Part shown: one piece after another, positions 10,480 through 52,877 of the stretch
How positions within the stretch are numbered: the first letter of the stretch is position 1
Layout of the letters: each line of letters starts with the position of its first letter
Virus record (IMG/VR): IMGVR_UViG_3300045988_159436
DNA length: 64,000 bases
Source: a virus
Reading direction: 5' to 3' (one strand)
The notes under the pieces: generated by a model
What the model saw: only the letters and a program-made list of their open reading frames with translations
Databases searched by the model: none
Told to the model about the DNA's origin: nothing
Position numbers and translations under genes: made by a program

Positions 10480-12294
10480 TTGGAACATATAACTAAACAA
10501 GAAGATGTAACAGTAACTAGAATAGTAAGCTCTTTAAATACTTTAGATGATGAAAATATGGTGGTAGTGTCCACTACAGAGCCAGAGAAGAAAAAAGATG
10601 GATTAATATGGGTTAATCCAAATCAAGAAGAAGCGGAAAAATTGGTTTATGTAGGACATACAGTTGGTGACATTTATCCCATTAGTTATACAGAGTTAGA
10701 TTCAGGTCAGTTAATATTAAATGGTCAGTTAATAAGCAGAGAAATATATGGTGTGTTATGGGATTGGTTGCAAAAACACCCTAGTTTAATAAAAACAGAA
10801 GTAGAGTGGAATGCATATTTAGCATCAACAAATAATGTATGTTGCCCATATTTTAGTATGGGAACTACTGAAACTAATTTTAGATTGCCTAAATATAGTG
10901 GAGTATTTATTAGAGCTGATTCTGATATAACTAAAATTAATCAATTTAGTGAAGATACACAAAGAAATATTCTTGGACAATTTACAACTTTTCGTACAAG
11001 TTGGGATGATGGTACTGGAGAATTACTTTTTGGAGTGAGTGGAGCTTTTGCAAAAGTAGAAACTGGTAATAATATGGACAGTATTCATCAAGATGGCTCA
11101 GACAGACAACAGCAAACTATAAATTTCGACGCTTCACGTTCAGTAGGCGCAGAGCATACTGGCGAAGAAGTAAAACCTAAATCAATAAATCAAATATGGG
11201 TTATTCAAGCTGTAGGAACTATTACTAATCAAACAAGTATTGATGTAAGTGCTATTCAAGAAGAAGTGCAACAATTAATGGATTTTGGGAATTATCAAGT
11301 AGCTTGCATTAAGGATAAATCCAATTATTTTTCAAGAGATAGTTTATTTACTTCAAACAAAACGTCTATTGTTATTCCTAAGAATATGCGGATAAATATA
11401 AATGGAGAGGCTTATATAAGCACACGTAATGTCACTCTTAATACTTCAACATTAGGTGAAAATCTAGCGGGTAAAGATGTTTATATTTATGCCTTAGCAG
11501 GTTCTGGAACAGAGCCAGATTTTGTATTATCTTTAAATAGTACAGTTCCTACAGGATATACAGCAGAAAATAGCCGTAAAATAGGTGGTTTTCATTGTTT
11601 ATGTAAAGATGTTGGGATTATAGAAGGGCATGCTTTATCTGGATATGTTGCAGGGGATATCTTACCAGCAACAAGATGGGATTTAGAACACCGCCCAAAA
11701 GGAAATCCAGAAGGATTTGCTTATGAAGAATTAACGGATTGTTGGATTGCGATTTATCTGCCAAGTTGGGACGGAACTAAATTAGTCAGTGTTTATAATG
11801 GAGTTATTGCTGATGGAAGCTCTGCTAAAAAATGGCATGGAGAAGCTTTTTATGAGCAATTTGTAAAACAAGGAATGCGTTTAGTTTGGCGGCACGAATT
11901 TCAAATGGGAGCAAAAGGTTCTAATGAACAAACAAATATTCAAGGTTCATCTGACCCTAATACTACAGGTGGGCATGTAGATACGGCTGGAAGAAGAATG
12001 ATTAGTAATATAGGATTAGAAGATTGTTGTGGTGTATTATGGCAATTTTCAATGGATTTAGGCTTTGCTGGCGGGTCTGGTTGGACAAATTCTACTTATA
12101 ACTCTAATGTAGACGATAGAAGTTATGGACGAACATATGGAACGCTTTATCGCTTGCTGTTGGGTTCTAGCTGGAATGTTGGCTCGTATTGCGGTTCTCG
12201 TTCGGCTAATTGCAATGATTCTTCGGCTTATGTGTCTGTCCACAACTCTTCTCGTAGTGCGTCTGAGCCGAGAATTGAAAATTTGAGAAACTAA
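10480..12294 (+). CDS. DGR target protein (receptor-binding-type protein with C-terminal variable region)
   Basis: The last ~50 codons are the VR copy of the downstream TR. C-terminus is rich in Gly/Ser/Asn/Tyr/Trp, as expected for a CLec/FGE-type variable domain, and ends 9 codons after the VR. Confidence 0.8.
   Translation: MEHITKQEDVTVTRIVSSLNTLDDENMVVVSTTEPEKKKDGLIWVNPNQEEAEKLVYVGHTVGDIYPISYTELDSGQLILNGQLISREIYGVLWDWLQKHPSLIKTEVEWNAYLASTNNVCCPYFSMGTTETNFRLPKYSGVFIRADSDITKINQFSEDTQRNILGQFTTFRTSWDDGTGELLFGVSGAFAKVETGNNMDSIHQDGSDRQQQTINFDASRSVGAEHTGEEVKPKSINQIWVIQAVGTITNQTSIDVSAIQEEVQQLMDFGNYQVACIKDKSNYFSRDSLFTSNKTSIVIPKNMRININGEAYISTRNVTLNTSTLGENLAGKDVYIYALAGSGTEPDFVLSLNSTVPTGYTAENSRKIGGFHCLCKDVGIIEGHALSGYVAGDILPATRWDLEHRPKGNPEGFAYEELTDCWIAIYLPSWDGTKLVSVYNGVIADGSSAKKWHGEAFYEQFVKQGMRLVWRHEFQMGAKGSNEQTNIQGSSDPNTTGGHVDTAGRRMISNIGLEDCCGVLWQFSMDLGFAGGSGWTNSTYNSNVDDRSYGRTYGTLYRLLLGSSWNVGSYCGSRSANCNDSSAYVSVHNSSRSASEPRIENLRN
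12154..12266 (+). repeat. DGR variable repeat (VR)
   Basis: 113 bp aligns to TR (12442-12554) with 16 mismatches, every one at a TR adenine. The flanks diverge immediately outside the repeat. Confidence 0.85.
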
Positions 12295-12329
12295 GAAACC
12301 GAGAAAAAGTTTGGATAGTTGGACAGAGA

Positions 12330-12349
12330 GGTCTAGAAACCGAGAGACC
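12330..12349 (+). other. hairpin downstream of VR (ggtct-N10-agacc), candidate homing-associated structure
   Basis: 5-bp stem with 10-nt loop, next to gaaaccgaga direct repeats; about 60 bp after VR. Confidence 0.25.
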
Positions 12350-12366
12350 GAGACTAAAATTTTTAG

Positions 12367-12395
12367 TTGTGAGAAAATAAAGAAGATTATATAAT
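12367..12395 (+). promoter_or_regulatory. candidate promoter for the TR-RT transcript (TTGTGA-17-TATAAT)
   Basis: ttgtga at 12367-72, 17-bp spacer, tataat at 12390-95. Confidence 0.3.
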
Positions 12396-12441
12396 AATAT
12401 TATATAAGGGCATATATGATACTTAGATTGGCAAGATTTTT

Positions 12442-12554
12442 TTGCTGTTGAGTTCTAACTGGAATAATGGCACGAATTGCAGTTCTCGTTCAGCTAATTG
12501 CAATGATTCATCAGCTAATGTGAATGTCAACAACTCTTCTCGTAGTACGTCTGA
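12442..12554 (+). repeat. DGR template repeat (TR), non-coding
   Basis: Cognate of VR. Adenines sit mainly in AAT/AAC-type positions of the VR frame. Separated from the RT start by a ~150-nt spacer. Confidence 0.85.
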
Positions 12555-12705
12555 TACGTGGGTGATTTTAAAGCAGGTGCGGCTTACCCTCGGCTGATTA
12601 TATATGCCTCACTGAAAAGTGAAATACAAAACAGGGAGAAATAGGGGCTAGTAAAGTAATTGAACGTCCTTATTTCTAAATTTTATTAAATTAAAAGGAT
12701 AATTA

Positions 12706-13722
12706 ATGAAAAGAAAAGGAAATTTATGGACTAAAATAATAGACAAAAGCAATTTATATTTGGCTTTTGAGAAAGCTAAAAGACATAAAAGTTGGCAAAG
12801 AAAGGTTAAAATTATAGAAGCAAATTTAGATTATTATATTGAAAAGTTACAAAATGATTTGATAACAGGTCAATATAAAACTGCTGAATATAAGTTAAAA
12901 ACAATTTATGAGCCAAAGAAAAGAGATATTTATATTTTGCCATTTTATCCAGATAGGATAGTTCATCACGCTATTATGAATGTTTTAGAGCCTATATGGG
13001 ATAATAGATTTATTTATAATAGTTATGCTTGTCGAAAAAATAAAGGTCAACATAAAGGCAGTATAAAATGTATGGAATACACTAGAAAGTTTAAATATTG
13101 TTTGAAATGTGATATAAGTAAATTTTATCCTTCTATTAATCACAGGCTTCTAAAGAAAGTGATACGTAAAAAAATAAAATGTAAAAAGACTTTAAATTTA
13201 TTAGATGAGATAATTGATAGTGTTGATACGCCTGTAAATGTTCCTATAGGAAATTATTTAAGTCAGTGGTTTGGAAACTTATATTTAAATGAGTTAGATG
13301 TTTTTCTAAAGCAAGAGAATTGTGTAAAAAATTATTTAAGATATTGCGATGATTTTTTATTATTTTCTGATGATAAAACATATTTAAATAAAATGGCTAA
13401 AATAATAAATGAATATGTAGTTAATATTTTAGAATTAAAACTTAGCAAATGTGTTTTGTTTCCAACAGCACAAGGAGTTGATTTTTTAGGATATAGACAT
13501 TTCCATGCTGGTTATGTTTTGGTAAGAAAATCAACAGCTAAAAGAATGAAGCGTAGGATTAAAAGATTAAAATATGAATTATTAAAGAATAAAATAAGTC
13601 AAGATAAGGCTTTATCTGTTGTAGCAAGTTTATCTGGGGGGTTAAGATGGGCTAATAGTTACAATTTAAAAATGTCTTTAGAGCTAGAATTATTAAAAAA
13701 GGAATTAGGAGGAAACTCTTAG
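12706..13722 (+). CDS. DGR-type reverse transcriptase
   Basis: RT motifs including YCDDFLLF (YxDD) and the DGR-specific motif-4 IGNYLSQWFGNLYLNELD (I/LGxxxSQ); RBS aaaggataattaATG. Confidence 0.9.
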   Translation: MKRKGNLWTKIIDKSNLYLAFEKAKRHKSWQRKVKIIEANLDYYIEKLQNDLITGQYKTAEYKLKTIYEPKKRDIYILPFYPDRIVHHAIMNVLEPIWDNRFIYNSYACRKNKGQHKGSIKCMEYTRKFKYCLKCDISKFYPSINHRLLKKVIRKKIKCKKTLNLLDEIIDSVDTPVNVPIGNYLSQWFGNLYLNELDVFLKQENCVKNYLRYCDDFLLFSDDKTYLNKMAKIINEYVVNILELKLSKCVLFPTAQGVDFLGYRHFHAGYVLVRKSTAKRMKRRIKRLKYELLKNKISQDKALSVVASLSGGLRWANSYNLKMSLELELLKKELGGNS

Positions 13723-23855: not shown

Positions 23856-24197
23856 ATGTTTGAGAAGCTAAAGAATATTATCAAATCAAAAATTCTTGTA
23901 AAGCCTAGAATTGCTGGTGGGAGTTTAAAGCTTCTCTATATAATGATTGCATTAATAATAACAACTGTTTTAGCTTATATATTTGCTTGGGCATACCAAG
24001 CGATATTTAAAGGCGTAATAGCATTACCTGATTTATTAGCCTTAACGAAAGTTTTATTCTCCCCAGAAGCAATCGCCGCTATATTCTTTTATGGGGCATC
24101 CATAATAGATAAAGACGGAGATGGAGAGAGCGACAAATTAGAAAAAGAAGCACAGAAGGAAGATAAAAAAGAAGGTGGATGTAATGTACGAAAGTAA
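23856..24197 (+). CDS. holin (2 TM, charged C-terminal tail)
   Basis: Two hydrophobic helices, a KE/D-rich C-terminus, and an overlap with the endolysin start. Confidence 0.5.
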   Translation: MFEKLKNIIKSKILVKPRIAGGSLKLLYIMIALIITTVLAYIFAWAYQAIFKGVIALPDLLALTKVLFSPEAIAAIFFYGASIIDKDGDGESDKLEKEAQKEDKKEGGCNVRK

Positions 24198-24636
24198 ACA
24201 TTGGAGCGTAACAGAATGGGATTGTTGGCGCAGAAACAGTAATGAATATGCGTGGGACAATGAAAATGGGAAGTTATGCACGAATAATGAAAAAACAGCA
24301 AATTTATTTAAAATATTAGATATGCTGAGAGATTGGAATTTTAATTGGGTAGTAAATACTACAGTTTATCACTCTGAGTATGGAACAGATTTCAAATCTG
24401 GTTATAGAACTGTAGACGATGGCGTTAATGCGGCGTGTGGTGGAGCATTAGGAAGTTATCACACGAAAGGATGTGCCGCAGATATTCATATCGCTGGTCA
24501 AGATGATACTGATACTGCTTTAGCAGACACCGTTTTAGCGGCGGCAAAAGCGTGGGGATTAGAAGACCAGTTAGGAATAGGTTATTATGGTGATTGGATT
24601 CATATAGATACCAGAGGAGTAACTTCGAGATGGTAA
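24175..24636 (+). CDS. endolysin, peptidase M15 (L-Ala-D-Glu / VanY-like zinc peptidase)
   Basis: SYHTKGCAADIHI (SxHxxGxAxD) and GDWIHIDTRG (His/Asp zinc ligands). Confidence 0.7.
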   Translation: MDVMYESKHWSVTEWDCWRRNSNEYAWDNENGKLCTNNEKTANLFKILDMLRDWNFNWVVNTTVYHSEYGTDFKSGYRTVDDGVNAACGGALGSYHTKGCAADIHIAGQDDTDTALADTVLAAAKAWGLEDQLGIGYYGDWIHIDTRGVTSRW

Positions 24637-33808: not shown

Positions 33809-36800
33809 TTGTTTCATCAAAGATTCTTTAAATTAACTATTGTCAATAAAGAGAATGTTGATAGATTTTTTGAGGAATATGAACGAGCGAAACAAATTTT
33901 CTTTGACTTTGAAACTTCTGGATTAGATGTAAGATATAAGGGGAAAGATTATGCAGTAGGATTAACAGTAGCCTTTGAAGATAGTGTCAGTAAGGAAGTA
34001 TACTATATTCCTTTCAGACACTATTTTGAAGGTAGCTATATTGGTTGTGGGAGACTCGATTACCGTAAAAACACTGCGGTTTTTGATGATGCTAAAAATT
34101 TTCCTGATTTTTTACCAGAAAAGTTTTCAGGAGAATATTATAATATGGATATTGTTGATTTTATGGAACGATTGAAGCCTTTAATGGAAAATGGCGGGAA
34201 AGAGTATATAGCCCATCATATTTCATTTGACTTACATTTATTTGCAAATGAAGGTGTAGATATAGTAAAAGTGTTTGAAACAAATACTTTTACTGATACA
34301 CAAATAGCTGTACATACTTTAGATGAAGAACAAGAGAAGAATTTAGAAGCAGTAACTGAAACAATTTTCTCTGTAAAAAAATCTCATTTTAAAGATACTA
34401 TTATGACAGTTACTAAAGAGGAAAAGAAACTTTTGGGATTAGCTTCTAATAGTAATGCTAGTTTTCAACACGTTCAGATTCCAATAGGAGCACAATATTC
34501 AGCAGAAGATGTATATTTTATGAAAGAAATGTATGAGCCAATTCTTAATGCGTTAAGAGAAGATGGTGGTTACGAATATTTTAGAGAAGTACGAATGCCA
34601 TATATGAAAGTTTTGTGGAAAATGGAACGTAATGGAATCAAAGTTGACATAGAAAAACTTGAAGGTATGATAAAATTAGCAGAAGAAAAATTGGAAGAAT
34701 TAACATACAAAATATATGAAGTAGTAGGAGCTAAATTTAATATTAACAGTGGTCAACAGTTATTTGAGATATTATATGGTTTTAAAAAGAAATTAAAGGA
34801 TAAGAAAACAGGGGAATATAAAGAGTCTTTTAATGAAGATTTAGTAGCATTAAATTTTGGTTTTAAGCCTATCGCATGGACAGAGGGCGGGAAATCAAGA
34901 GATATGGTATTAAGAACACCAAAAACAGATAAAGATGCGCTAAAGAAATTATTAAGACAAACTCCTAAAAGAGAAGATGGGCATAAATTAATTAAACTTC
35001 TACAAGATTATTTTAAATTAACAAAATTGTATACAGCATTTATGCTGGGTATAAAAGAAAAAATATATTGTGATGGAAAAGTACATCCAAGCTTCAACCA
35101 AAATGGTTGTCTTGTAGCAAACACTTTAATTCCTACAGATAGGGGATTGTTCCGCATTCAGGATTTAGTAACAGATGCTTTAGTTGATGGTGAATTTGTT
35201 TCTAAAACCTATACGCTATTAAATCGAAATTTAGAACCTGAAAAGACTTCCCATATAGTTAAATATGAGAATAGGAATACTATAAAAATTCGTACTGCTT
35301 TAGGGGTTACTATCGAAGGAACTGAAAATCACCCAATAATATGTAATAAATATTCTTCAAAAGATTTATACCTTAATAGGAATAGTTGTCGTTTTAAAAA
35401 TTTATATAAGAAAAAGGATGCTCAAATTTTCAAGCGTTTAGATGAGATAAATACTGAAACTTATGTAGCAGTCCCTTATGGTTATAATTTTTTTGCTAAA
35501 GATTATCAGAAACTTGAATATGAATATGTTGCAATGCGTAGTGGATTTAAGCAAGTTAAATTACCAGAAATTTTAGATGAAGATGTGGCAGAGTTTATGG
35601 GGATGTATTATGCAGATGGGTGTTTATCAGACACAAATGGTACTTTTACTATTTGCTTTACTAATGGAGATTCCTGTGTAATAAATCGTATACAAGAATT
35701 GTCTTTAAGACTTTTTGGAATAAAAGCACATGTTCGTGACTGTCATCCTCATAGAAATTCTTTGGATATTAGAATTAGTGCTAAAAGACTTGCTAGTATT
35801 GAGAAAGCTTTTCAGCTTAAAAGAGGATGCACAAACAAAGTTATTCCTGATATTATTTTACAGTCCCCAAGAAGTGTTGTAATAGCTTTCATAAAAGGAA
35901 TGACATTAGATAGTTATTTTGTAGAAGAATCTAATAAAAAACAGCTAAGATTTACTGTTTCAAATGAGCAAAGTCTTTTTCAACTTCAAACATTGCTATT
36001 GAATTTAGGTATTATTGGTGGGGCAAGACATCTCAATACTTATACTGGAAATGTTTATATGCTAACATTAACTAATGGAGAATATTTAAAGTTTAGAGAT
36101 ATCGTAGGATTTGTTCAAAAGAAAAAGTATAAAGATTTTGAGTATCAAAGAATTTCTGGTCAATATTTAGTAGATGAAGGTAATTCATTAATTTGGGTAA
36201 AGGTTAAAGAAATAGATAAAGGAAGGGCAGATGTTTATGACTTTACTCTACCCGAAACACATAGTTTTATTTCAAATGGGTTTATTAGTCATAATACATC
36301 ATCATTTAGGCTAAGTTGTTCTGACCCGAACTAAACAGATGGTTCGCTAGGCAAGAAATTCCTAGAAAAATTAACTGCTCTAACTCGGTGAAACTCCACC
36401 AATAAAAGGACAACACCGAACTAAGTTAGTTAGCGATAACTAAAAAGTGTAACGACTAGAGAAAGTAGGCTATATTAGTCGAAATCTCCACGAATGGGCA
36501 GAGCCTAAACCGAAAGGCATGGCTAAGATATAGTCTGAACTCCGTACAATGGTAAAGACGGAGAAGCGGGGATAAAGAGCCCCGTGATAACATAATTGTT
36601 CAACAGCTTCCTAAGCCTTTAGAAGAGCCTAAAGATGGTGAAGATAGAAGTTACTATGATTTTTGGATACAATTTGAAATAAGAAGTTTAATGATAGCTG
36701 ACAATGAAGACGAAGTAATTGTTGCGGCAGATTATCATGCTCTGGAAAAGTTTTTAACAGCGCATTTTTCAAAAGACCCATTGTTGATTAAAATGCTAAA

Positions 36801-38015: not shown

Positions 38016-38390
38016 ATGACAATTAAAGTAGGTGGACAGATGGCAGATGATTTAGTTTACCGAGGAGATGCTTCTTCTTCTAAAACATCTTCTGGTGAAT
38101 ATGAAGAAGTTTTAAAACTTTTAGAAGCTCAGGTAGGAATGCTTGAAGACATAAATAATCGTTTACAAAAGTGTGTTGTTGGGGAGACCATTTCAGTTGA
38201 AAGTGTAGCCCCAGAAGGGTTAGTACCAAATGTTCTTGGTATACGTTTAAGTAGATTAGAGGATAAGTTAGAAGTTATTATTAGAGATTATTCTGATTGT
38301 GTTGATGTAATTGAAGAGAAATTAGGCAAGATGACATTACAGGGGGGATACTTTGCCAGATTTAAAGCAGTTAGTAAAGACTATAAATAA
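38016..38390 (+). CDS. hypothetical protein
   Basis: RBS aaggaggtaaagaatATG. ORF-track start 37968 lies upstream of the predicted transcription start. Confidence 0.4.
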   Translation: MTIKVGGQMADDLVYRGDASSSKTSSGEYEEVLKLLEAQVGMLEDINNRLQKCVVGETISVESVAPEGLVPNVLGIRLSRLEDKLEVIIRDYSDCVDVIEEKLGKMTLQGGYFARFKAVSKDYK

Positions 38391-39444
38391 AGCGCATGGT
38401 AAGAACGCTATACGTTTAGGGGCAACTATTAAAGAGCAGATGTCCTATAAGATTTCAACAGGTAGTGTGGCTTTAGATTATGTAATTGGTGGTGGAATAC
38501 CTTCTGGAAGATTAATAACTATTGCAGGAGCTTATTCTACTGGTAAATCATTATTAGCTTATAAGATGATTGCTAATGTTCAAAAAATGAAAAAGAAACT
38601 TGTTACAGTTGATGGCGAAGATATAGAAATTGTAGCAGAAGATGGTGATATTCCTTTAACTTGTGCTTTGATACAAACGGAACAAGGTAGTCTTACAAAA
38701 GAATGGGCAATAGAAAACGGCATAGATTTAGAGTCACTTTTATTTTGCCAACCTGATGGAATGGAAGAAGCTTTAGATATAGCTATAGCCTTGCAGAGAG
38801 CAGGAGTAGAATTGATTGTTATTGATTCTTATGCCGCTTTACTACCTACTAAAGTATTAACTTCTGACTTTGATGAAAGCTATCAAATGGGAATCAAGCC
38901 TAAAATGTTAGGTGAGTATCATGGTAAATTTCAGTTGTTTAATAATGCATTAGAGCGAGAAGGAAAACTTCCTTCTACGGTTGTTGCAATTAATCAGTTG
39001 AGAGAGAAAATTGGCGTGATGTATGGAAGTCCAGAGTATACAACAGGTGGTAGAAGCACTGGATTTACAAATACTTTAGAGATTAGATTACGTATGGGTG
39101 ATACTATTGCAGTAGGTAGTGGAGAAACAAAAAGAATTGTAGGTAAGACAATCAAATTTAGAATCGAGAAAAATAAAGCTGGCGTTCCTTATGGAACAGG
39201 TGAGTATGATATTTATACAGACACTTGTGATTATATTCAAAGAGGGGATATTGATAACGAAAAAGCATTAATTATGATTGCAGTATTGTTAGGAATAGTT
39301 GAGCGCAGAGGTGGCTGGTATTACTATAATGGTGAGCAGTTATCACAGGGGCAAGATAATTTAATTAAATTATTGCGTTCTAACAGAGCTTTATTTGAAG
39401 AGATAAGGGAAAAGGTGTTAACATCAGATGAGCATATACAATAG
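38353..39444 (+). CDS. recA: RecA-family recombinase
   Basis: GGIPSGRLITIAGAYSTGKS (Walker A) and AINQLREKIGVMYGSPEYTTGG match RecA core motifs. TTG start with RBS aggggggata. Confidence 0.8.
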   Translation: MPDLKQLVKTINKAHGKNAIRLGATIKEQMSYKISTGSVALDYVIGGGIPSGRLITIAGAYSTGKSLLAYKMIANVQKMKKKLVTVDGEDIEIVAEDGDIPLTCALIQTEQGSLTKEWAIENGIDLESLLFCQPDGMEEALDIAIALQRAGVELIVIDSYAALLPTKVLTSDFDESYQMGIKPKMLGEYHGKFQLFNNALEREGKLPSTVVAINQLREKIGVMYGSPEYTTGGRSTGFTNTLEIRLRMGDTIAVGSGETKRIVGKTIKFRIEKNKAGVPYGTGEYDIYTDTCDYIQRGDIDNEKALIMIAVLLGIVERRGGWYYYNGEQLSQGQDNLIKLLRSNRALFEEIREKVLTSDEHIQ

Positions 39445-41807: not shown

Positions 41808-42273
41808 CAAGATTGAAAATCAACTTTCACAAGAAGGTGTACCCCCTTTCTCCAATGAGAATATTGAAAGAGACTATTTAAAATTGCCAAGATATTTAGA
41901 TGAGTTACCTGCCGCTGAAATAGGAAGGTATCTTCATGCTACAGTACAGCAAAGGGTATATGTAAGAACGCTTATATCTCAAACAAGAGCGTATTTAAGG
42001 GAAGCACAGAGTCAGTTAAATATGGAAAAAGCTTTAATTTATAAAAGTTTTCCAGTAAAAATGAGTCTTACAGAAAAAGAATTAAAACTTGCAGAATATC
42101 CTTCCGCTAAAGAGGCAATGGAAAGGGTGATATATTTGCAAGAAAGACTTGATTATTTAAAAGATGTATTAGATAGCTTAGAAGATTTAAAATTTAATAT
42201 TAGTAGAGAGTTGTCTAGACGTGGAGTAGACTTTACAGATGCCAACAGAAGTGCTAGGGTTGGTGTAGAGTGA
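41791..42273 (+). CDS. hypothetical protein
   Basis: ORF overlapping the previous gene end. Confidence 0.4.
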   Translation: MVTLIDKIENQLSQEGVPPFSNENIERDYLKLPRYLDELPAAEIGRYLHATVQQRVYVRTLISQTRAYLREAQSQLNMEKALIYKSFPVKMSLTEKELKLAEYPSAKEAMERVIYLQERLDYLKDVLDSLEDLKFNISRELSRRGVDFTDANRSARVGVE

Positions 42274-42800
42274 AGCAAGTAGATGTTCTTAAAGAACGGT
42301 TAGAACTTTTAAAAAGATATGAACCTGATTCGAAAGAAATAGTAGAGTTAGAAAATCGGATTAAATTAAGCAAAAAAGCTAAATCCAGTAGGAGAAAAGG
42401 GGCATCTTATGAATCAAAGGTAAGGAAGCTTTTGGGCGAAAGATTTCCTGATTTAGATTTTTCAAGAGTTCCTTCCAGTGGTGGATTTCAAAAATCCTCA
42501 GCCAATACTTTGTTAAGAGGGGACTTAGTTAATCTAAATGAAGATTATGATTTCAAATTACATTTAGAACTAAAAAATCAAAATAGATGGCAAGTTAATA
42601 CATGGTTTGAGCAAGCTGAAAGCGATTGTATTGAAGGTAAATTACCTATAGTTATTATGCATAGAACGCAGAAAAATGAAAATGGCAAGCGAATAGCAGA
42701 AGCAGATGATTTTGTATTTTTACGTTTAAAAGATTTTTTAGATATTTTAGATGATGGAAAAATAATCAAAAAATGTCTTGACAAAAAGACAAAAATGTGA
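42270..42800 (+). CDS. putative PD-(D/E)xK nuclease / resolvase-like
   Basis: GDLVNL...LHLELK motif. Confidence 0.3.
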   Translation: MKQVDVLKERLELLKRYEPDSKEIVELENRIKLSKKAKSSRRKGASYESKVRKLLGERFPDLDFSRVPSSGGFQKSSANTLLRGDLVNLNEDYDFKLHLELKNQNRWQVNTWFEQAESDCIEGKLPIVIMHRTQKNENGKRIAEADDFVFLRLKDFLDILDDGKIIKKCLDKKTKM

Positions 42801-42806
42801 TATAAT
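42778..42806 (+). promoter_or_regulatory. sigma-A promoter (TTGACA-17-TGaTATAAT)
   Basis: -35 at 42778-83, -10 at 42801-06. Confidence 0.6.
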
Positions 42807-42867
42807 AACATTTGTAATAATTTTAAAAAAGCCTATAAAGGGCTATAAAAGGAAAGAGGAAGATAGA

Positions 42868-43428
42868 ATGGAAAAAACAGCTTTATTTAAAGTTTCTTCA
42901 ACAAGTAATGCAAAAAGTGTAGCAGGCTCAATCAGCCACACATTGAAAGGTGACGGAGATACAGCACCAAAAGATGTAGTATTGCAAGCAATCGGAGCTA
43001 AAGGCTAATTGGCTCCCATCACAGTGATGTGATGAAAAATAGCGGGGAAGAAAACTGGAAAGCTGAGAAGCTAATCAGATTGGAAGGTTTAGTTTAAAAG
43101 CTAAACCACAAGCAGAGCATAGACAGTGAACCTCTTAGAGAATATAATCTGTCCACGAGTCCCCGCCGCTTATAACGAGGTTATTCGAGCGTTATAAGAT
43201 GAAAAGATATGCCGAACTAACAGGAAACGAACTGTTAGAAGTAGAGGATAAAAAGCCTTTACGATAACATAATTGAGTGCCATTAATCAAACATGTAAAG
43301 CTATTGCTATTTCAAGAGGGCATTTAGCTGTGGCAGGATACGATGTAGTTACTAGAATTGGATTTGACGTTGTTGAAATTGATGGTGAAGAACGTACAAT
43401 TTTGAAATTCTTCGTATCATTGAGATAA
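42868..43428 (+). CDS. spoVS: SpoVS homologue, split by an intervening sequence
   Basis: Exon 1 (42868 to about 43005) MEKTALFKVSSTSNAKSVAGSISHTL...VVLQAIGAKG and exon 2 (about 43276-43428) AINQTCKAIAISRGHLAVAGYDVVTRIGFDVVEIDGEERTILKF align along the full length of B. subtilis SpoVS (...SVAGALAGVL...IQAIGAGALNQAVKAVAIARG...IDGEERTAIKLIV). Confidence 0.65.
43007..43275 (+). mobile_element. probable group I intron in the spoVS-like gene (no ORF; boundaries approximate)
   Basis: A ~270-nt non-coding insert exactly between conserved SpoVS residues; contains agaatataatctgtcc core-like element. Confidence 0.45.
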
Positions 43429-43452
43429 CTCTGACTAGAGTATAACAGTCAT

Positions 43453-43480
43453 AGCCCACCTAAATGGTGGGCTTTTATTT
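43453..43480 (+). terminator. rho-independent terminator (agcccacc-taaa-ggtgggct + T-run)
   Basis: GC-rich stem followed by ttttatttt. Confidence 0.65.
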
Positions 43481-43494
43481 TAAGGAGGCATACT

Positions 43495-43878
43495 ATGAAC
43501 CAAGAACTCACATTAGCAGTTAGCAGTAGTTTTGAAGCCGCTCATCATTTAGTAAATCCAACAGCATTTAATGAAAAATGCCTTAAACTACATGGACATT
43601 CTTATAAGTATACTATCTTTTTAAAAGGAGAAGTACAAGATGGTGGTATGGTAGAAGATTTTGGAGCTATAAAGAGATATATTATAAATGAAATAACAAA
43701 GCTCTATGACCATTCAGATTTAAACAGATTTTTTTATAATCCTACCGCAGAAATGTTAGTTTTAGATATGGCATGGAGAGTAGAAGCCTTAATAGAGGAT
43801 AATAGTTTAAAAGTTAAACTGACCAAAATAGAATTAGCCGAAACGGATAATAATAGGGTAATATGGGAGTCACAGTAA
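43495..43878 (+). CDS. queD: 6-carboxy-5,6,7,8-tetrahydropterin synthase QueD
   Basis: CLKLHGHSY (CxxxHGH) plus the N-terminal EAAHHL motif. Confidence 0.7.
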   Translation: MNQELTLAVSSSFEAAHHLVNPTAFNEKCLKLHGHSYKYTIFLKGEVQDGGMVEDFGAIKRYIINEITKLYDHSDLNRFFYNPTAEMLVLDMAWRVEALIEDNSLKVKLTKIELAETDNNRVIWESQ

Positions 43879-44535
43879 ATGTATATTACAGAGATTTTTA
43901 GTAGTATTCAAGGTGAGGGGAAGTATACAGGCTATCCTACTACCTTTGTTAGATTATTTGGTTGCAATTTATTTGAGATGTCTCCTAGCTATGCTTGTAA
44001 GTATTGTGATGAGAAACATTCAATGACAGGCAAACGAATAAAGATGCATTTAGGATTGGTAATGGATAAGATAGGGGCATTAGGAAATAAATATGTTTGT
44101 ATTACAGGTGGAGAACCTTTAATGCAGGAAGAAACTATGCCTTTAGTTTATGAATTATTGTATAATGATTATATTGTTACAGTAGAAACAAATGGGACAA
44201 TTCCTATAGAGCATTGTGAATATGTAAGAAGTTATTCATATTGTATGGATGTTAAATTACCTAGTAGCAGAACAGTATTAGCACCAGATTTAAATTGTTA
44301 TAAGAATTTAGGAGAGCTAAAAGTAAATGATGAAGTTAAGTTTGTTATTTCTAATATCCATGATTATGAAGAAGCAAAACGGATTTTAAAGAAATATAAA
44401 ACTAAAGCAAGCCTTATTTTTTCTCCTGTGAATTGTGATTTAGAATTAGCAAGAGAAATAATGGGTTGGTTAATGAAAGATAAACTAAAAGCTAAATTAG
44501 GATTACAAATACATAAATTATTAGAAATTAAATAG
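43879..44535 (+). CDS. queE: 7-carboxy-7-deazaguanine synthase QueE (radical SAM)
   Basis: EIFSSIQGEGKYTGYPTTFVRLFGCN...C..CD N-terminal signature. Confidence 0.7.
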   Translation: MYITEIFSSIQGEGKYTGYPTTFVRLFGCNLFEMSPSYACKYCDEKHSMTGKRIKMHLGLVMDKIGALGNKYVCITGGEPLMQEETMPLVYELLYNDYIVTVETNGTIPIEHCEYVRSYSYCMDVKLPSSRTVLAPDLNCYKNLGELKVNDEVKFVISNIHDYEEAKRILKKYKTKASLIFSPVNCDLELAREIMGWLMKDKLKAKLGLQIHKLLEIK

Positions 44536-44585: not shown

Positions 44586-46446
44586 ATGAAGATAGAAAAT
44601 GTTAGAATATATGGTTTGCCAGAGAGCTTAATAGCCTCTGGCTATCCTATGTTATCTACAGAATTAAATGAAGAGGAATTTTTAAAGGAAGTAGAAGCGA
44701 CAGAAAAAATAATTAAAAATAAATCTGGTAGTAATAAACATATAGAAAGAGGTATTAGATTAGGCAATTCTCCTTTAGGTAGCGGACATAATTGTGCTTT
44801 AAAGGGAATTACAGTACAATTTGATTTAACTTTGCCTCAGTATACATGGCAACAGTTACAAAGATATCACTATATTGATTTTATAAGCTCAATGGGCGTT
44901 TTAGGCAGTAATGCCTAAAATTATCAGACGGAGAACCTGTAAATGCAGGGTGTCAGAAATGGCTAACGGTTCAGAACTAGAGATAGTTTATGAGTAAGGG
45001 AAGCTAAACCTTTCGAGGCAAGCTAATACCGTGCTGTATAAATTTGAAAAGGAAATTATTATGGAAAAAATTGAAGATATGATTATTTTAGAGTATTTAC
45101 CACTTCAAAAAGTAAGAGTGAGATGCTCTATTTGTGGAAAAGAAAGAATAGTATCTTTAAGAAATTTAAGGAGAAAAGGCAATAGACATACTATAAATAC
45201 TTGTAAAGAATCTTTTGTTAATTTACTAATAGGAAAAGAGCTAGGCGATTATGTTGTTTCTGGTTCTGCTCCTAAAAATAAAATAGAATTAAGCTGTAAG
45301 ATATGTGGGCATAAAACGTCTTGTTATGAAAGTGGGCTAACCCCAAGATTCCATAATGGTAGCACTTGTAAAGAAGATTTTGCTAAAAGTTTTCTAGGAA
45401 AATCTACAGATGCTTTTAAGATAGTTGATTATTTTAAAAAGGGACAACAGTATCAATTAGTGTTAGAATGTTTATCCTGTGCAACACGAAGGAATATACC
45501 TATTAATAAAATAGATACATATTCTTTTTCTCATAAAGATTGTTTTTATTTTCTTCCTAATGATAACATAAAGAAAACTATAAGTTATCGTTGGGAGGGG
45601 ATAAATCAACGTGTTTTTAATCCTAACAATAATAACTATACGTATTATGGAGCAAGAGGTGTGCAGAATAAATTCAAAGATAAAGTTGATTTCTATTATC
45701 ATTTTTATCCCGAATTATCTAAAAATTCTTCTCTAACTATAGATAGAATAGATGTTAATGGGGATTATAGCAAAGAAAATACAAGACTAATTACAATAAA
45801 AGAACAGCAGTCTAATAAAAGAGAAACTCATTATTTTATAGCACAAGCTGGTGATAAATGCTATGTTTCTAATAACACTATGGAATTTGGAAAAAGATTT
45901 GGCATAAATGGTAGAAGCATAGGAAATTGTTTGAGAGGACAATCTAAAACTGCTGGTGGCTTTAAATTCAAAGAAATTACAAAAGAGCAATTTGAGAATT
46001 TATGTAGTGTAACGACTAAAGGGATAATTGTTATCCAAGAGGTTGTAGGTGAAATTCCTACGCTGTAGCACCGTCCCCCTGAAAAGGGTGAAGAGATAGT
46101 CTATTCCCTTCAAATACGCCGAAAGGCGGGGTATAAAGCAATGTCAAAAATGCATCGTATTACAATGCTTGATTTAGATAAACATTGTCCTTTAGTGGAT
46201 AATGAATTATTAAAAATTTCACAAAGATATGTAAATGCTTATAAAAAAGGTGAGATTGGCATAGATGCTTGTTTATCTAATATTCCTATGGGATTACAGA
46301 TGACAGCACGAATGACTACAAACTATTTACAACTATTATCTATTTATCATCAGAGAAATACCCATCGTTCAGATGAATGGAAAGAATTTTGTTCTTGGGT
46401 AAAAACACTGCCTATGTTTAAAGAGTTGTGTTTAAAAGGAGAATAA
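44586..46446 (+). CDS. ThyX-like (flavin-dependent thymidylate synthase family) gene split by a group I intron
   Basis: Exon 1 (44586 to about 44915) and exon 2 (about 46136-46446) together show the ThyX-like pattern ...LPQYTWQQLQR... / ...HRI...NELLKISQRY... / ...RNTHRSDEWKEF (compare APIFVARQWFRHR, ELSGRY, RADSHAQWEI). Exact splice junction not determined. Confidence 0.4.
44916..46135 (+). mobile_element. group I intron carrying a homing-endonuclease ORF
   Basis: 5' part ggttcagaactagag (R-like) and 3' part agagatagtctattc (S-like) flank the ORF; sits between two halves of one gene. Confidence 0.55.
45031..46068 (+). CDS. intron-encoded homing endonuclease (zinc-finger + HNH_3-like domain)
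   Basis: N-terminal CSICGKE/CKICGH zinc knuckles; C-terminal IDRIDVNGDYSKENTRLITIKEQQSN resembles the HNH_3 motif. Start may be Met11 (45061). Confidence 0.5.
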   Translation: MLYKFEKEIIMEKIEDMIILEYLPLQKVRVRCSICGKERIVSLRNLRRKGNRHTINTCKESFVNLLIGKELGDYVVSGSAPKNKIELSCKICGHKTSCYESGLTPRFHNGSTCKEDFAKSFLGKSTDAFKIVDYFKKGQQYQLVLECLSCATRRNIPINKIDTYSFSHKDCFYFLPNDNIKKTISYRWEGINQRVFNPNNNNYTYYGARGVQNKFKDKVDFYYHFYPELSKNSSLTIDRIDVNGDYSKENTRLITIKEQQSNKRETHYFIAQAGDKCYVSNNTMEFGKRFGINGRSIGNCLRGQSKTAGGFKFKEITKEQFENLCSVTTKGIIVIQEVVGEIPTL

Positions 46447-51035: not shown

Positions 51036-52877
51036 ATGAAAAATGGATATACGTTATTTCTTTCTGGCGTTGAACCAGAAGAAAATTTCTATACTGCAAT
51101 AGACGTTACTTCTAGTCTATTGCAGTCTTATTGGTATATAAAGCGGCGTGGAAAAGATAAAATTGTAGAACGTTTTGATAAAGTTAAGAAGAACTCTTTG
51201 TTAATTGATAGTGGAGCACATACCTTTCTCACTTTAGCAGAATATCAAGATAAGACAGTAGATTATTGGGAAGAGTATATAAAAGGGTATATAGCTTTTG
51301 TAAGAAAACATAGAGAAAAAGTATTTGCTTGTGTTGAAATGGATATAGATACTTTAGTAGGAACAGAACAAGTAAATAAATGGAGAGAAGAATACTTTCA
51401 TTCTTTAGAGGAAGAGGGCATTCCTGTTATTTATGTTTATCATGCAGAAAAAGGATTGGAAGAGTGGGAAAGAATGTGTAAAGCATATCCCTATGTAGGA
51501 TTCTCTTATAATGAATTTGAAGATGCTATTTTAATTGATAAATTATTTGAAATAGCAATGGAATATAAAACTAAAGTACATGGTTTTGCAGTATCGGGGT
51601 ATAGGGAATTATTAAAACATGAGTATTATACAAGTGACAGTACAAGCTGGATTACAGGAGCTCAATATGGAGAATTAAACTATTTTGAAGGTGGAAAATT
51701 AAAGCGGTTAACAAAAGAGAAATGGAAAAATGAATATTATGCAAAAATACTTGATTTATGCACAAGTAAAAAGTTACTAGAAGCAGAGGCTCCTTATGAA
51801 TTAATGCGTATTAGTGCTTTAAGCTATAAGAAATTAGAAGAGCATGTAAATGATATATTTAGAGGTAAAAGATATTGGGTTGGAAGAAAGGAAGTGTCTA
51901 AAGTAGCGAGTAAGGAAAATTTACCGCCAGTAGAATGGTTTTCAACTGATATGGAAGATTGGCAAGAATGGGCACAGAAATTAAATATAGATACTAACCT
52001 TCCTGATGAAGCAGGTAAATCATTAGTTGTTGCCTGTTACAATTTTGTGACAGATAATCCTATTATAAATGAGTATCCTCTTGAAGAGTTAATTGATTTA
52101 TGTGGGCTTTTTGGTGATAAGAAGTCAAATACTCTTACCAAGTGCCGAAAAGCCCTTAAAGAGCACTTTACAGCTCTCTTAAAGGGCAGTATGGATTTAT
52201 CCACTTTGACAGAAGAAGAAGTAGAAGAGAAAAAAAATGTAGCTCCAAAAGAGCGGGAAGAGTATGTTCAAGAAAAAGAGTATGTAGAATGTACTGTTAG
52301 CAAGGAAGAGTGTCAAGGTTTATTAAAAGGATTATTAACTTCTGGTGTGACAGATGAAGCAGAGAAAGCTTTAATTGAACAGGGAATAGAGCCTATTTAT
52401 GATGAGAATGGAAATATTAAAGCAGGTATTAAACGAATAAAGAAAAGAAAATCTTTAAGTTCAAGTGTGATGCCAGAGTTAAGTTGCAATATTTGTACTA
52501 AAGCACGGAGATGTCCTTTATATGAAGAAGGAATGCTTTGTGCTTATAATAAAATGTTTAAGCAATTTGATACAAGAAATCCCGAAGATGTAGTAGATGC
52601 TATGAGCAGTATTGCAAATTTAAGTTTAGAAAGATTATCAAGGGCTGTAACATTTGAAAAGTTAGATGGTGGCTTAAATACTAAAGAAGTAACAGAGACA
52701 ATGGCAGAAGCATGGAAATATCTTGAAAAGATACAAGAAATTCAAACAAAGAGTGATAAAGTTATAGCAGAGCGTAGAGTTGTAACTTCTTCTAATGGCG
52801 ATGTAGAAGTAAGAGAAAGTGTAACAGGAAATCCGCAAGGTTTATTGTCTGAGATTCTAAAAACAAAAAAAAGTTGA
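51036..52877 (+). CDS. tRNA-guanine-transglycosylase-fold protein, candidate DpdA-like 7-deazaguanine DNA transglycosylase, with extra C-terminal domain
   Basis: LLIDSGAHTFL resembles the TGT catalytic DSGGFQ box; co-located with queC/D/E; C-terminal Cys cluster (CNICTKARRCP...C). Tentative. Confidence 0.35.
   Translation: MKNGYTLFLSGVEPEENFYTAIDVTSSLLQSYWYIKRRGKDKIVERFDKVKKNSLLIDSGAHTFLTLAEYQDKTVDYWEEYIKGYIAFVRKHREKVFACVEMDIDTLVGTEQVNKWREEYFHSLEEEGIPVIYVYHAEKGLEEWERMCKAYPYVGFSYNEFEDAILIDKLFEIAMEYKTKVHGFAVSGYRELLKHEYYTSDSTSWITGAQYGELNYFEGGKLKRLTKEKWKNEYYAKILDLCTSKKLLEAEAPYELMRISALSYKKLEEHVNDIFRGKRYWVGRKEVSKVASKENLPPVEWFSTDMEDWQEWAQKLNIDTNLPDEAGKSLVVACYNFVTDNPIINEYPLEELIDLCGLFGDKKSNTLTKCRKALKEHFTALLKGSMDLSTLTEEEVEEKKNVAPKEREEYVQEKEYVECTVSKEECQGLLKGLLTSGVTDEAEKALIEQGIEPIYDENGNIKAGIKRIKKRKSLSSSVMPELSCNICTKARRCPLYEEGMLCAYNKMFKQFDTRNPEDVVDAMSSIANLSLERLSRAVTFEKLDGGLNTKEVTETMAEAWKYLEKIQEIQTKSDKVIAERRVVTSSNGDVEVRESVTGNPQGLLSEILKTKKS

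Follow-up and report, generated by a model that had tools for sequence, protein, structure and literature searches.

A spoVS gene of a tailed phage interrupted by a predicted subgroup IA group I intron

The DNA analyzed here (hereafter the window) is a stretch of 64,000 nucleotides (nt) from IMG/VR virus record IMGVR_UViG_3300045988_159436, and our subject is a split spoVS gene at positions 42868–43428. The sequence predicts that this gene encodes a full-length SpoVS-family (Alba-fold) protein on the genome of a tailed phage, and that its two exons are separated by a 276-nt insert which, judged by its boundaries, core architecture and covariation, we assign with high confidence to the group I introns. 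We consider it very probable that this anatomy is correct and that the insert is removed by splicing. The initial annotation of the window had called the insert intron-like, a description that has proved apt. Positions are those of the window, one strand being numbered; all long open reading frames (ORFs) of the window lie on the + strand.

The spoVS exons, the insert boundaries and their alleles

An ORF that starts at ATG 42868 runs to a stop codon at 43006–43008, and a second ORF occupies 43273–43428. Each matches the Pfam family PF04232 by itself (E = 3.7e-05 over profile positions 3–36 for the exon-1 ORF; E = 1.4e-11 over positions 36–82 for the exon-2 ORF), with profile coordinates that abut, and the joined protein of 94 amino acids (aa) scores 77.8 bits against a cut-off of 24 bits (E = 5.4e-22, profile positions 3–82 of 83). 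The initial annotation had taken the two segments together to be SpoVS and proposed a PF04232 search with the joined exons; this full-length match bears it out. Two segments do exist, but the first ends at 42999 rather than at 43005 as originally drawn, because the AAA GGC codons (KG) and the TAA at 43006–43008 are intron sequence. The coding parts and the insert are as follows.

42868–42999, + strand: spoVS exon 1, 44 codons (MEKT..LQAIGA), last base U42999
43000–43275, + strand: 276-nt group I intron without an ORF, predicted subgroup IA type, last base omega-G 43275; absent exactly from intron-less alleles
43276–43428, + strand: spoVS exon 2, 50 codons (SAINQ..FFVSLR) plus a TAA stop

The joined protein also matches PDB entry 2EH1, “SpoVS related protein” (E = 2.1e-14), and by tblastn it forms a single unbroken alignment with the uninterrupted SpoVS genes of BCD7, LysYB1, LysYB2, TS-12 and BRock; the phages with such uninterrupted, SpoVS-annotated genes are Bacillus phage BCD7, Lysinibacillus phages LysYB1 and LysYB2, Stenotrophomonas phage TS-12 and Streptomyces phages including BRock. 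With bacterial SpoVS (B. subtilis; Thermus 2EH1/2EK0) it shares the full-length PF04232 match and the AIGA-xA-NQ-KAIA-RG and GEERT motifs, whereas the phage clade is distinguished by a 5-residue insertion (the GDGDTAPKD region) and by its identity of 43% to B. subtilis SpoVS. The B. subtilis row of our protein alignment serves as illustration only. A SpoVS protein scan of 185,579 representative bacterial genomes found no close bacterial counterpart.

The boundaries of the insert were read from alleles that lack it. When IMG/VR was scanned with this protein, 16 loci of near-identical phages matched. Two of them, L005 and L006, have no insert, and the proteins they encode are 100% and 99% identical to the joined protein across residues 1–94; in their alignment the intron-less DNA at the junction reads ...CGGAGCT/AGTGCCATT... 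A Logan contig (L044) is colinear with the window at 97–98.6% identity except for two clean gaps, one of which corresponds to 43000–43275, ±1 nt. This 1-nt ambiguity is resolved by the group I rule, under which the 5' cut follows a U and the 3' cut follows a G. The three intron-less alleles fix the junction at GGAGCT/AGTGCC, and the protein junction of the joined exons is LQAIGA/SAINQ. As the initial annotation had noted, the insert falls between conserved residues: it lies directly after G43 and A44, both invariant in an alignment of 19 SpoVS sequences, and interrupts the most conserved SpoVS motif. Insertion within a conserved motif is usual for homing-endonuclease targets (PMC3984707).

The same site carries inserts of several lengths.

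Insert 0 nt: L005 and L006, and also L044
Insert 276 nt: the window, L007, L010 and L017
Insert 419 nt: five loci
Insert 887 nt: four loci, L009, L011, L013 and L018
Insert of about 893 nt, divergent: L019

The extra DNA of the longer alleles sits in the loop of helix P8, between 43184 and 43185, where related alleles add either a 143-nt ORF remnant or a 611-nt segment. In the 887-nt allele this loop holds a 207-aa ORF, at 2299–2922 in L009, that matches Pfam HNH_3 (E = 7e-12) and, weakly, helix-turn-helix models; L019 likewise has an HNH_3 ORF in its P8 loop, and the ORFs of the 887-nt alleles and L019 range over 207–209 aa. The 419-nt allele is an internal deletion of the HNH ORF, and the 276-nt allele is without the further 143 nt, so that no endonuclease ORF stands in a peripheral loop of the window intron, the ribozyme part of which differs by one base from the ORF-bearing alleles. 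Intron-less alleles with an intact target site are represented by L005, L006, L044 and protein cluster P0001, and with 110 member sequences in that cluster the intron-less form is common. Read in this series, the window intron is the ORF-less end state, or derivative, of a mobile intron with a homing endonuclease, the predicted HNH enzyme presumably being responsible for homing. Invasion, ORF decay and loss make up a familiar intron cycle (PMC3984707), and one site displays the endonuclease–intron life cycle here, with empty, intact-ORF, deleted-ORF and ORF-less states. No second copy was found in the window with an nhmmer profile of the spoVS-intron family.

Structure, covariation and predicted splicing of the intron

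Structural features were read by hand from the window sequence and then tested on a family alignment. The proposed secondary structure is made up of the following elements.

42994–43016, + strand: P1, exon GGAGCU 42994–42999 paired with internal guide GGCUCC 43011–43016
43017–43034, + strand: P2 hairpin, 7 bp, GUGA tetraloop; three compensatory pairs in L019
43042–47, + strand: P3 5' strand GCGGGG, pairing with CCCCGC
43055–58/43075–78, + strand: P4, core helix
43061–64/43069–72, + strand: P5, GAGA loop
43080–82/43109–11, + strand: P6; 43086–92/43101–07, + strand: P6a
From 43115, + strand: P7 5' strand, G43115, bulged A43116, GCAU 43117–20
43122–26/43149–53, + strand: P7.1; 43132–34/43138–40, + strand: P7.1a; conserved loops UGAACC and GAAUAUAAU
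43161–66, + strand: P3 3' strand, forming the P3/P7 pseudoknot
43169–43198, + strand: P8 hairpin, site of the ORF segments in related alleles
43199–43213, + strand: J8/7 AUGAAAAGAU and P7 3' strand AUGCC
43217–23/43232–38, + strand: P9; 43241–47/43256–62, + strand: P9.1, conserved loop AUAAAAAG
Up to 43275, + strand: 3' tail, to omega-G

At the 5' splice site P1 contains a U42999·G43011 wobble, and its loop includes the in-frame stop UAA 43006–43008; at the 3' end G43275 precedes exon 2 and is the sole cut that fits the intron-less junction. P10 is formed by 43000–43005 (AAAGGC) with 43279–43284 (exon-2 positions 4–9), which pair at 5/6 positions, and in the two sequences available for comparison an exon C-to-A change in L019 is answered by an intron G-to-U change. 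The “S”-like J8/7-P7 element, AUGAAAAGAUAUGCC at 43199–43213 (compare the RF00028 consensus gAAGAUAUAGUCu), is invariant across the intron family. Invariant too, in 18/18 sequences, is the pair G43117–C43212, preceded by a bulged A or C at 43116; by analogy with established group I architecture it is likely the guanosine-binding pair. The P7.1/P7.1a hairpin (43122–43153) lies between P7 and P3', is 100% and 98% paired in its two helices, and covaries in both. Such extra paired elements between P7 and P3' would place the intron in subgroup IA. A motif that the initial annotation had singled out as group-I-core-like, agaatataatctgtcc (43139–43154), is indeed conserved in the family, but it forms the 3' side of the P7.1/P7.1a hairpin rather than the J8/7-P7 “S” element. 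The minimum-free-energy fold of the intron has a z-score of −5.4.

By blastn, inserts in split genes of many phages share parts of this intron, and its 3' module (P9, P9.1 and the tail) recurs in split genes of many Bacillota phages. Examples are the following.

MT835481: terminase
Yersinia phage phiR1-37: gyrA
Staphylococcus phage 6ec: tape measure, with an HNH ORF
phiCD211: tape measure, beside an annotated Intron_gpI

Further relatives were retrieved with a degenerate pattern of three conserved single-stranded motifs, which found 23 viral loci and, in the 185,579 representative bacterial genomes, 20 loci (L045–L064), all in Bacilli or Clostridium. The genera named among the latter are Sediminibacillus, Virgibacillus, Thalassobacillus, Peribacillus, Neobacillus, Evansella, Metabacillus and Bacillus, the rest being metagenome-assembled genomes (MAGs) of uncultured Bacilli, Bacillales or Bacillus and one Clostridium MAG.

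Eighteen family members from diverse viral contigs were aligned, and the 56 proposed pairs in 10 helices, the P3 pseudoknot included, were compared with controls in which the 3' partners were slid by 1–3 columns.

Cells with a standard pair: proposed 89.0%; slid 33–47%
Pairs changing on both sides: proposed 43/56; slid 13–26
Covariation score: proposed 0.573; slid at most 0.152
Shuffles reaching the observed values: 0/500

P3 (97% of cells paired), P7 (100%) and P7.1 (100%) all change on both sides; within the family P3 swaps GGG/CCC for CCC/GGG, and the outer P7 pair, beside the bulge, swaps G-C for A-U in exact step. The divergent intron of L019, inserted at the same spoVS site, carries compensatory changes in P2, P4, P7 (A-U to G-C), P7.1, P9 and P10. 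The core order P3-P4-P5-P6-P7-P3'-P8-P7'-P9 is thus present together with covariation.

From this anatomy we propose that the locus is a single transcription unit of a tailed phage distantly related to BCD7, in which host RNA polymerase would transcribe the spoVS unit and the intron RNA would fold into P1–P10, with the P3/P7 pseudoknot and the P7.1/P7.1a extension. An exogenous guanosine held in P7 would attack after U42999, itself held as U·G in P1, and the freed 3'-OH of exon 1 would then attack after omega-G43275, joining GGAGCU to AGUGCC. By sequence reading, unspliced RNA would encode a 46-aa peptide ending at the UAA in the P1 loop; ribosomes on such RNA would halt at 43006–43008 and so be kept out of the ribozyme core.

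The alternative to be weighed is that no splicing takes place, the insert being the dead remnant of a group I intron or an insertion of some other kind, and that spoVS is a pseudogene yielding the truncated 46-aa peptide alone. The loss of the homing endonuclease ORF, the failure of RF00028 to recognize the RNA and the abundance of intron-less alleles (the 110-member cluster) are all compatible with decay. However, the ribozyme part is a single base away from that of alleles which retain the ORF, the core helices are all intact and covary across the family, and the ends of the insert show neither terminal inverted repeats nor a target duplication. The exons are free of frameshifts and stops and encode a protein 100% identical to that of the intron-less allele L005; between the window spoVS and that of L019, both intron-bearing, the ratio of nonsynonymous to synonymous substitution rates (dN/dS) is 0.068 at a dS of ~1.0, which shows the exons to be under purifying selection. 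The low dN/dS, the intact exons and ribozyme parts that have diverged yet still pair argue for a gene still expressed through splicing, and we regard a dead insertion as highly improbable. Other classes of insertion were discarded: a group II intron, for which the insert is too short and which the group I core contradicts; an intein, because of in-frame stops in the insert; an insertion sequence or miniature inverted-repeat transposable element, given that there are no terminal repeats and no target duplication; and translational bypass, for which 276 nt is too long.

Several points weigh against the spliced-intron reading. Rfam 15, run on the whole window at gathering score, found no family, and on 42900–43400 it gave no match at E ≤ 10. 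The purifying selection could predate a recent intron invasion that occurred independently in each lineage. The family was picked by conserved motifs and the structure was drawn from the window, so the percentages of paired cells are somewhat favoured, the counts of both-side changes being less affected; in the alignment, support is poor for P8 and for the innermost pair of P5. The class assignment stops at IA, short of a choice between IA1-like and IA2, for which literature searches on P7.1a and on introns of phiR1-37 turned up nothing useful.

The Rfam result can be calibrated. The initial annotation had suggested an RF00028 search of the insert, and although that search was negative, a control shows that the model is blind to this intron family: run under identical short-region settings, RF00028 gives the annotated tape-measure intron of phiCD211 a score of 41.7 bits (E = 3.4e-9; gathering score 50) and finds nothing in the phiCD211 intron immediately upstream, a member of the spoVS-intron family. 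Because that family member is missed too, the negative reflects a gap in model coverage and neither supports nor refutes the intron. Search settings also mattered: the annotated phiCD211 intron went undetected when six related loci were run against Rfam at E ≤ 1, and only the short-region search found it. In this phage (Clostridium phage phiCD211, positions 1306–1894 of our locus L003) the tape-measure gene apparently contains two group I introns in tandem, with a mini-exon of ~33 nt between them; its record annotates the second only, the first being the one of the spoVS-intron family.

Neither component is new: group I introns that carry HNH endonucleases are known from phages, and so are SpoVS genes. 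By architecture, rather than by sequence comparison, the spoVS intron resembles the phage subgroup IA introns (T4 td, nrdB and nrdD, Twort orf142, SPO1 DNA polymerase) reviewed by Hausner, Hafez and Edgell in 2014 (PMC3984707): it sits in the conserved codon block of a phage protein gene, has U·G at the 5' site and omega-G, a P3–P9 core with extra P7-P3' helices, in its ORF-bearing alleles an endonuclease ORF in a peripheral loop, and an in-frame stop soon past the 5' splice site. It differs in that spoVS is a new host gene for insertion, and in having P7 GCAU/AUGC and a nested P7.1/P7.1a with UGAACC and GAAUAUAAU loops, to which RF00028 is blind. Tourasse and Kolsto (2008, PMC2504315) described IA2 introns in the tape-measure genes of prophages of the Bacillus cereus group. 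In its 3' module, which runs from P8 to omega-G, the spoVS intron is 76–86% identical over ~75 nt to the tape-measure inserts of 6ec, phiCD211 and similar phages, whereas the gene and insertion site of those inserts are different. The allelic series has a parallel too: Foley et al. reportedly described in 2000 a lysin intron of Streptococcus thermophilus phages with a full, partly deleted or absent endonuclease ORF, which would be the same series as at the spoVS site, although gene, intron family and hosts differ. What the present case adds is a new insertion site and a well-resolved structure for an IA phage intron family that the Rfam group I model does not detect, a gap through which annotation pipelines fragment or miss intron-split genes.

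Phage lineage, host and the role of SpoVS

PHROGs and Pfam searches of the window, which has a G+C content of ~31%, identify a tape measure, tail fibres, a helicase, DNA polymerase, RecA, QueD, a QueE-like radical SAM protein and a Tgt/DpdA-like protein. The Que genes and the Tgt/DpdA-like gene suggest 7-deazaguanine DNA modification; the latter gene (51036–52877) has an extra segment. The closest SpoVS homologues, down to 47–49% identity, are all in phage contigs of the same gene order, namely PDDEXK_15 nuclease, sometimes an S26 signal-peptidase-like gene, SpoVS, QueD and QueE (window 42270–44535, BCD7, L065, L066–L071), and some of the SpoVS-QueD-QueE relatives also have QueC and FolE. In TS-12, LysYB1 and BRock SpoVS lies in other neighbourhoods with no adjacent Que genes, and in BRock it adjoins RuvC-like and single-stranded-DNA-binding (SSB) protein genes. 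These arrangements mark spoVS as a stable, long-standing syntenic gene of the lineage, one that does not look like a recent capture from a host.

The nearest cultured relative is BCD7, whose gp31, “putative stage V sporulation protein S” (JN712910), is 47% identical to the window protein and is likewise encoded upstream of QueD/QueE, and whose helicase is 43.6% identical to that of the window; its spoVS is uninterrupted, however, and the two genomes have no detectable DNA similarity. When the surrounding 20 kb was compared by megablast with 50,697 phage records, only the 75-nt 3' part of the intron matched, and there is therefore no close relative among those records. We consider a Bacillota host likely, because of the relationship to BCD7, the low G+C, the Gram-positive-style promoters and the occurrence of the intron family in Bacilli and Clostridium. 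Direct evidence was sought by tblastn with a candidate endolysin fragment (24175–24636), which gave no match; PHROGs searches with ten ORFs at 15–25 kb came back largely empty. ARAGORN reported zero tRNAs in the window. That the gene indicates a spore-forming Firmicute host, as the initial annotation held, goes beyond these data: BCD7 is consistent with Bacillota, but SpoVS is also found in Stenotrophomonas and Streptomyces phages.

SpoVS is a small protein with a predicted Alba fold and predicted DNA binding; within the Firmicutes it occurs only in spore-formers, but Thermotogae, Chloroflexi and Deinococcus-Thermus have it universally (PMC2732212). Mutation of spoVS in B. subtilis blocks stage V and alters sigma-K- and sigma-D-dependent expression (PMC2732212, citing Resnekov 1995 and Perez 2006), and viral spoVS has been listed in viromes as a sporulation auxiliary metabolic gene (AMG) (PMC6172770, PMC8940887). 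The likeliest role of the phage protein is, we suggest, nucleic-acid binding or regulation, which leaves several more specific readings.

The best of these, which we favour tentatively and at somewhat less than even odds, is that SpoVS is an Alba-like DNA or RNA binder for phage DNA metabolism or regulation with no specific link to sporulation, for example in handling 7-deazaguanine-modified DNA or as an early transcription regulator. The predicted fold and DNA binding (PMC2732212) point this way, as do the retention of the PDDEXK_15-(S26)-SpoVS-QueD-QueE order down to 47–49% SpoVS identity, the RuvC-like and SSB neighbours in BRock and expression from the standard strong promoter type of the phage. 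On the other hand, the Que adjacency is not seen in TS-12, LysYB1 or BRock and may be lineage synteny only, and nucleic-acid binding by SpoVS is a prediction.

A second reading, possible but doubtful in our judgment, is that the spliced SpoVS is the product of an auxiliary gene that alters the sporulation programme of a spore-forming Bacillota host. It draws on the B. subtilis mutant phenotypes at stage V and in sigma-K/sigma-D expression and on the restriction of SpoVS to spore-formers within the Firmicutes (both PMC2732212), on the infection of B. cereus by BCD7, which has spoVS, on the finding of the intron core pattern among bacterial genomes only in Bacilli and Clostridium, and on the sporulation AMG label of the virome papers. 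Yet SpoVS is universal in the three phyla named above (PMC2732212) and present in Stenotrophomonas and Streptomyces phages; the phage clade is diverged (43% to B. subtilis, a 5-residue insertion, no close bacterial relative); the fixed synteny with nuclease and DNA-modification genes suits phage-intrinsic nucleic-acid binding equally; and the host searches (bacterial SpoVS scan, endolysin tblastn) named no host. The manipulation of host sporulation put forward in the initial annotation therefore outruns the evidence, since SpoVS exists outside spore-formers and is here a lineage-syntenic gene. The stable synteny also warns against taking each viral “spoVS” as a sign of sporulation control or of a spore-forming host.

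A narrower proposal, which we rate as possible but less likely than not, is that SpoVS is a conserved Alba-like binder of the BCD7-like lineage, retained beside a PDDEXK nuclease and the 7-deazaguanine (QueD/QueE) genes, and not a sporulation “auxiliary”; its target would be the DNA of the phage itself, which may be modified, or phage transcription. If this were true, the natural alleles (intron-less, HNH-bearing, ORF-remnant and ORF-less) would form a test system both for the role of the protein and for endonuclease gain and loss. A coupling of SpoVS output, through guanosine-dependent splicing, to the host guanosine triphosphate pool, which falls at the onset of sporulation, is unlikely because intron-less alleles are common.

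Expression signals and other elements of the window

The spoVS unit is bracketed by the following signals.

42778–42806, + strand: promoter TTGACA-17-TATAAT, sigma-A type, 12/12, with a TG extended −10 at 42798–42799 (−15/−14)
42851–42860, + strand: ribosome-binding site GGAAAGAGGA, 7–8 nt 5' of the ATG
43453–43473 and on to 43483, + strand: intrinsic terminator, whose 8-bp stem has 6 G-C pairs and precedes a T tract

The initial annotation had credited the gene with its own consensus promoter; the 12/12 match at 42778–42806 holds, but the promoter is not special, being one of 18 of identical format. These 18 perfect TTGACA-17-TATAAT promoters lie between 14305 and 63838, on the + strand only and in the non-structural part of the genome; all have the TG extended −10 and most begin TTGACAA. 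Together they look like the phage's uniform promoter set for the host polymerase and are probably early promoters. An imperfect site, TAGACA-17-TATAAT (11/12), is present inside the intron at 43120–43148, where it overlaps P7/P7.1 and the GAAUAUAAU loop and stands ~40 nt upstream of the start of the HNH ORF in those alleles that have one. There it may serve to express the endonuclease, or it may be a mere by-product of the conserved motif.

A second intron of a family other than the spoVS intron is apparent in a 203-aa gene (44586–46446) that is uninterrupted in L044 and is split in the window by a 1249-nt insert at ~44890–46138, with cuts, by the U/G rule, after T44889 and after G46138. This insert contains a 345-aa HNH endonuclease ORF (45031–46068) and a classical group I “S”-like element, GAAGAGAUAGUCU, near 46090; it has no Rfam match at gathering score. 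Elsewhere, a diversity-generating retroelement occupies 10480–13722: its variable region (12154–12266) is the 3' end of a tail protein gene, its template repeat (12442–12554) is 87% identical to the variable region, with 15/15 mismatches at template adenines, and its reverse transcriptase ORF (12706–13722) matches RVT_1 (E = 2.7e-17). The DNA polymerase ORF (33809–36334) has extra segments at residues 434–514 and 791–830 that match unrelated PHROGs, and the Pfam match of RecA (38353–39444) falls into two stretches. A further insertion, for instance an intein, may be present in either gene.

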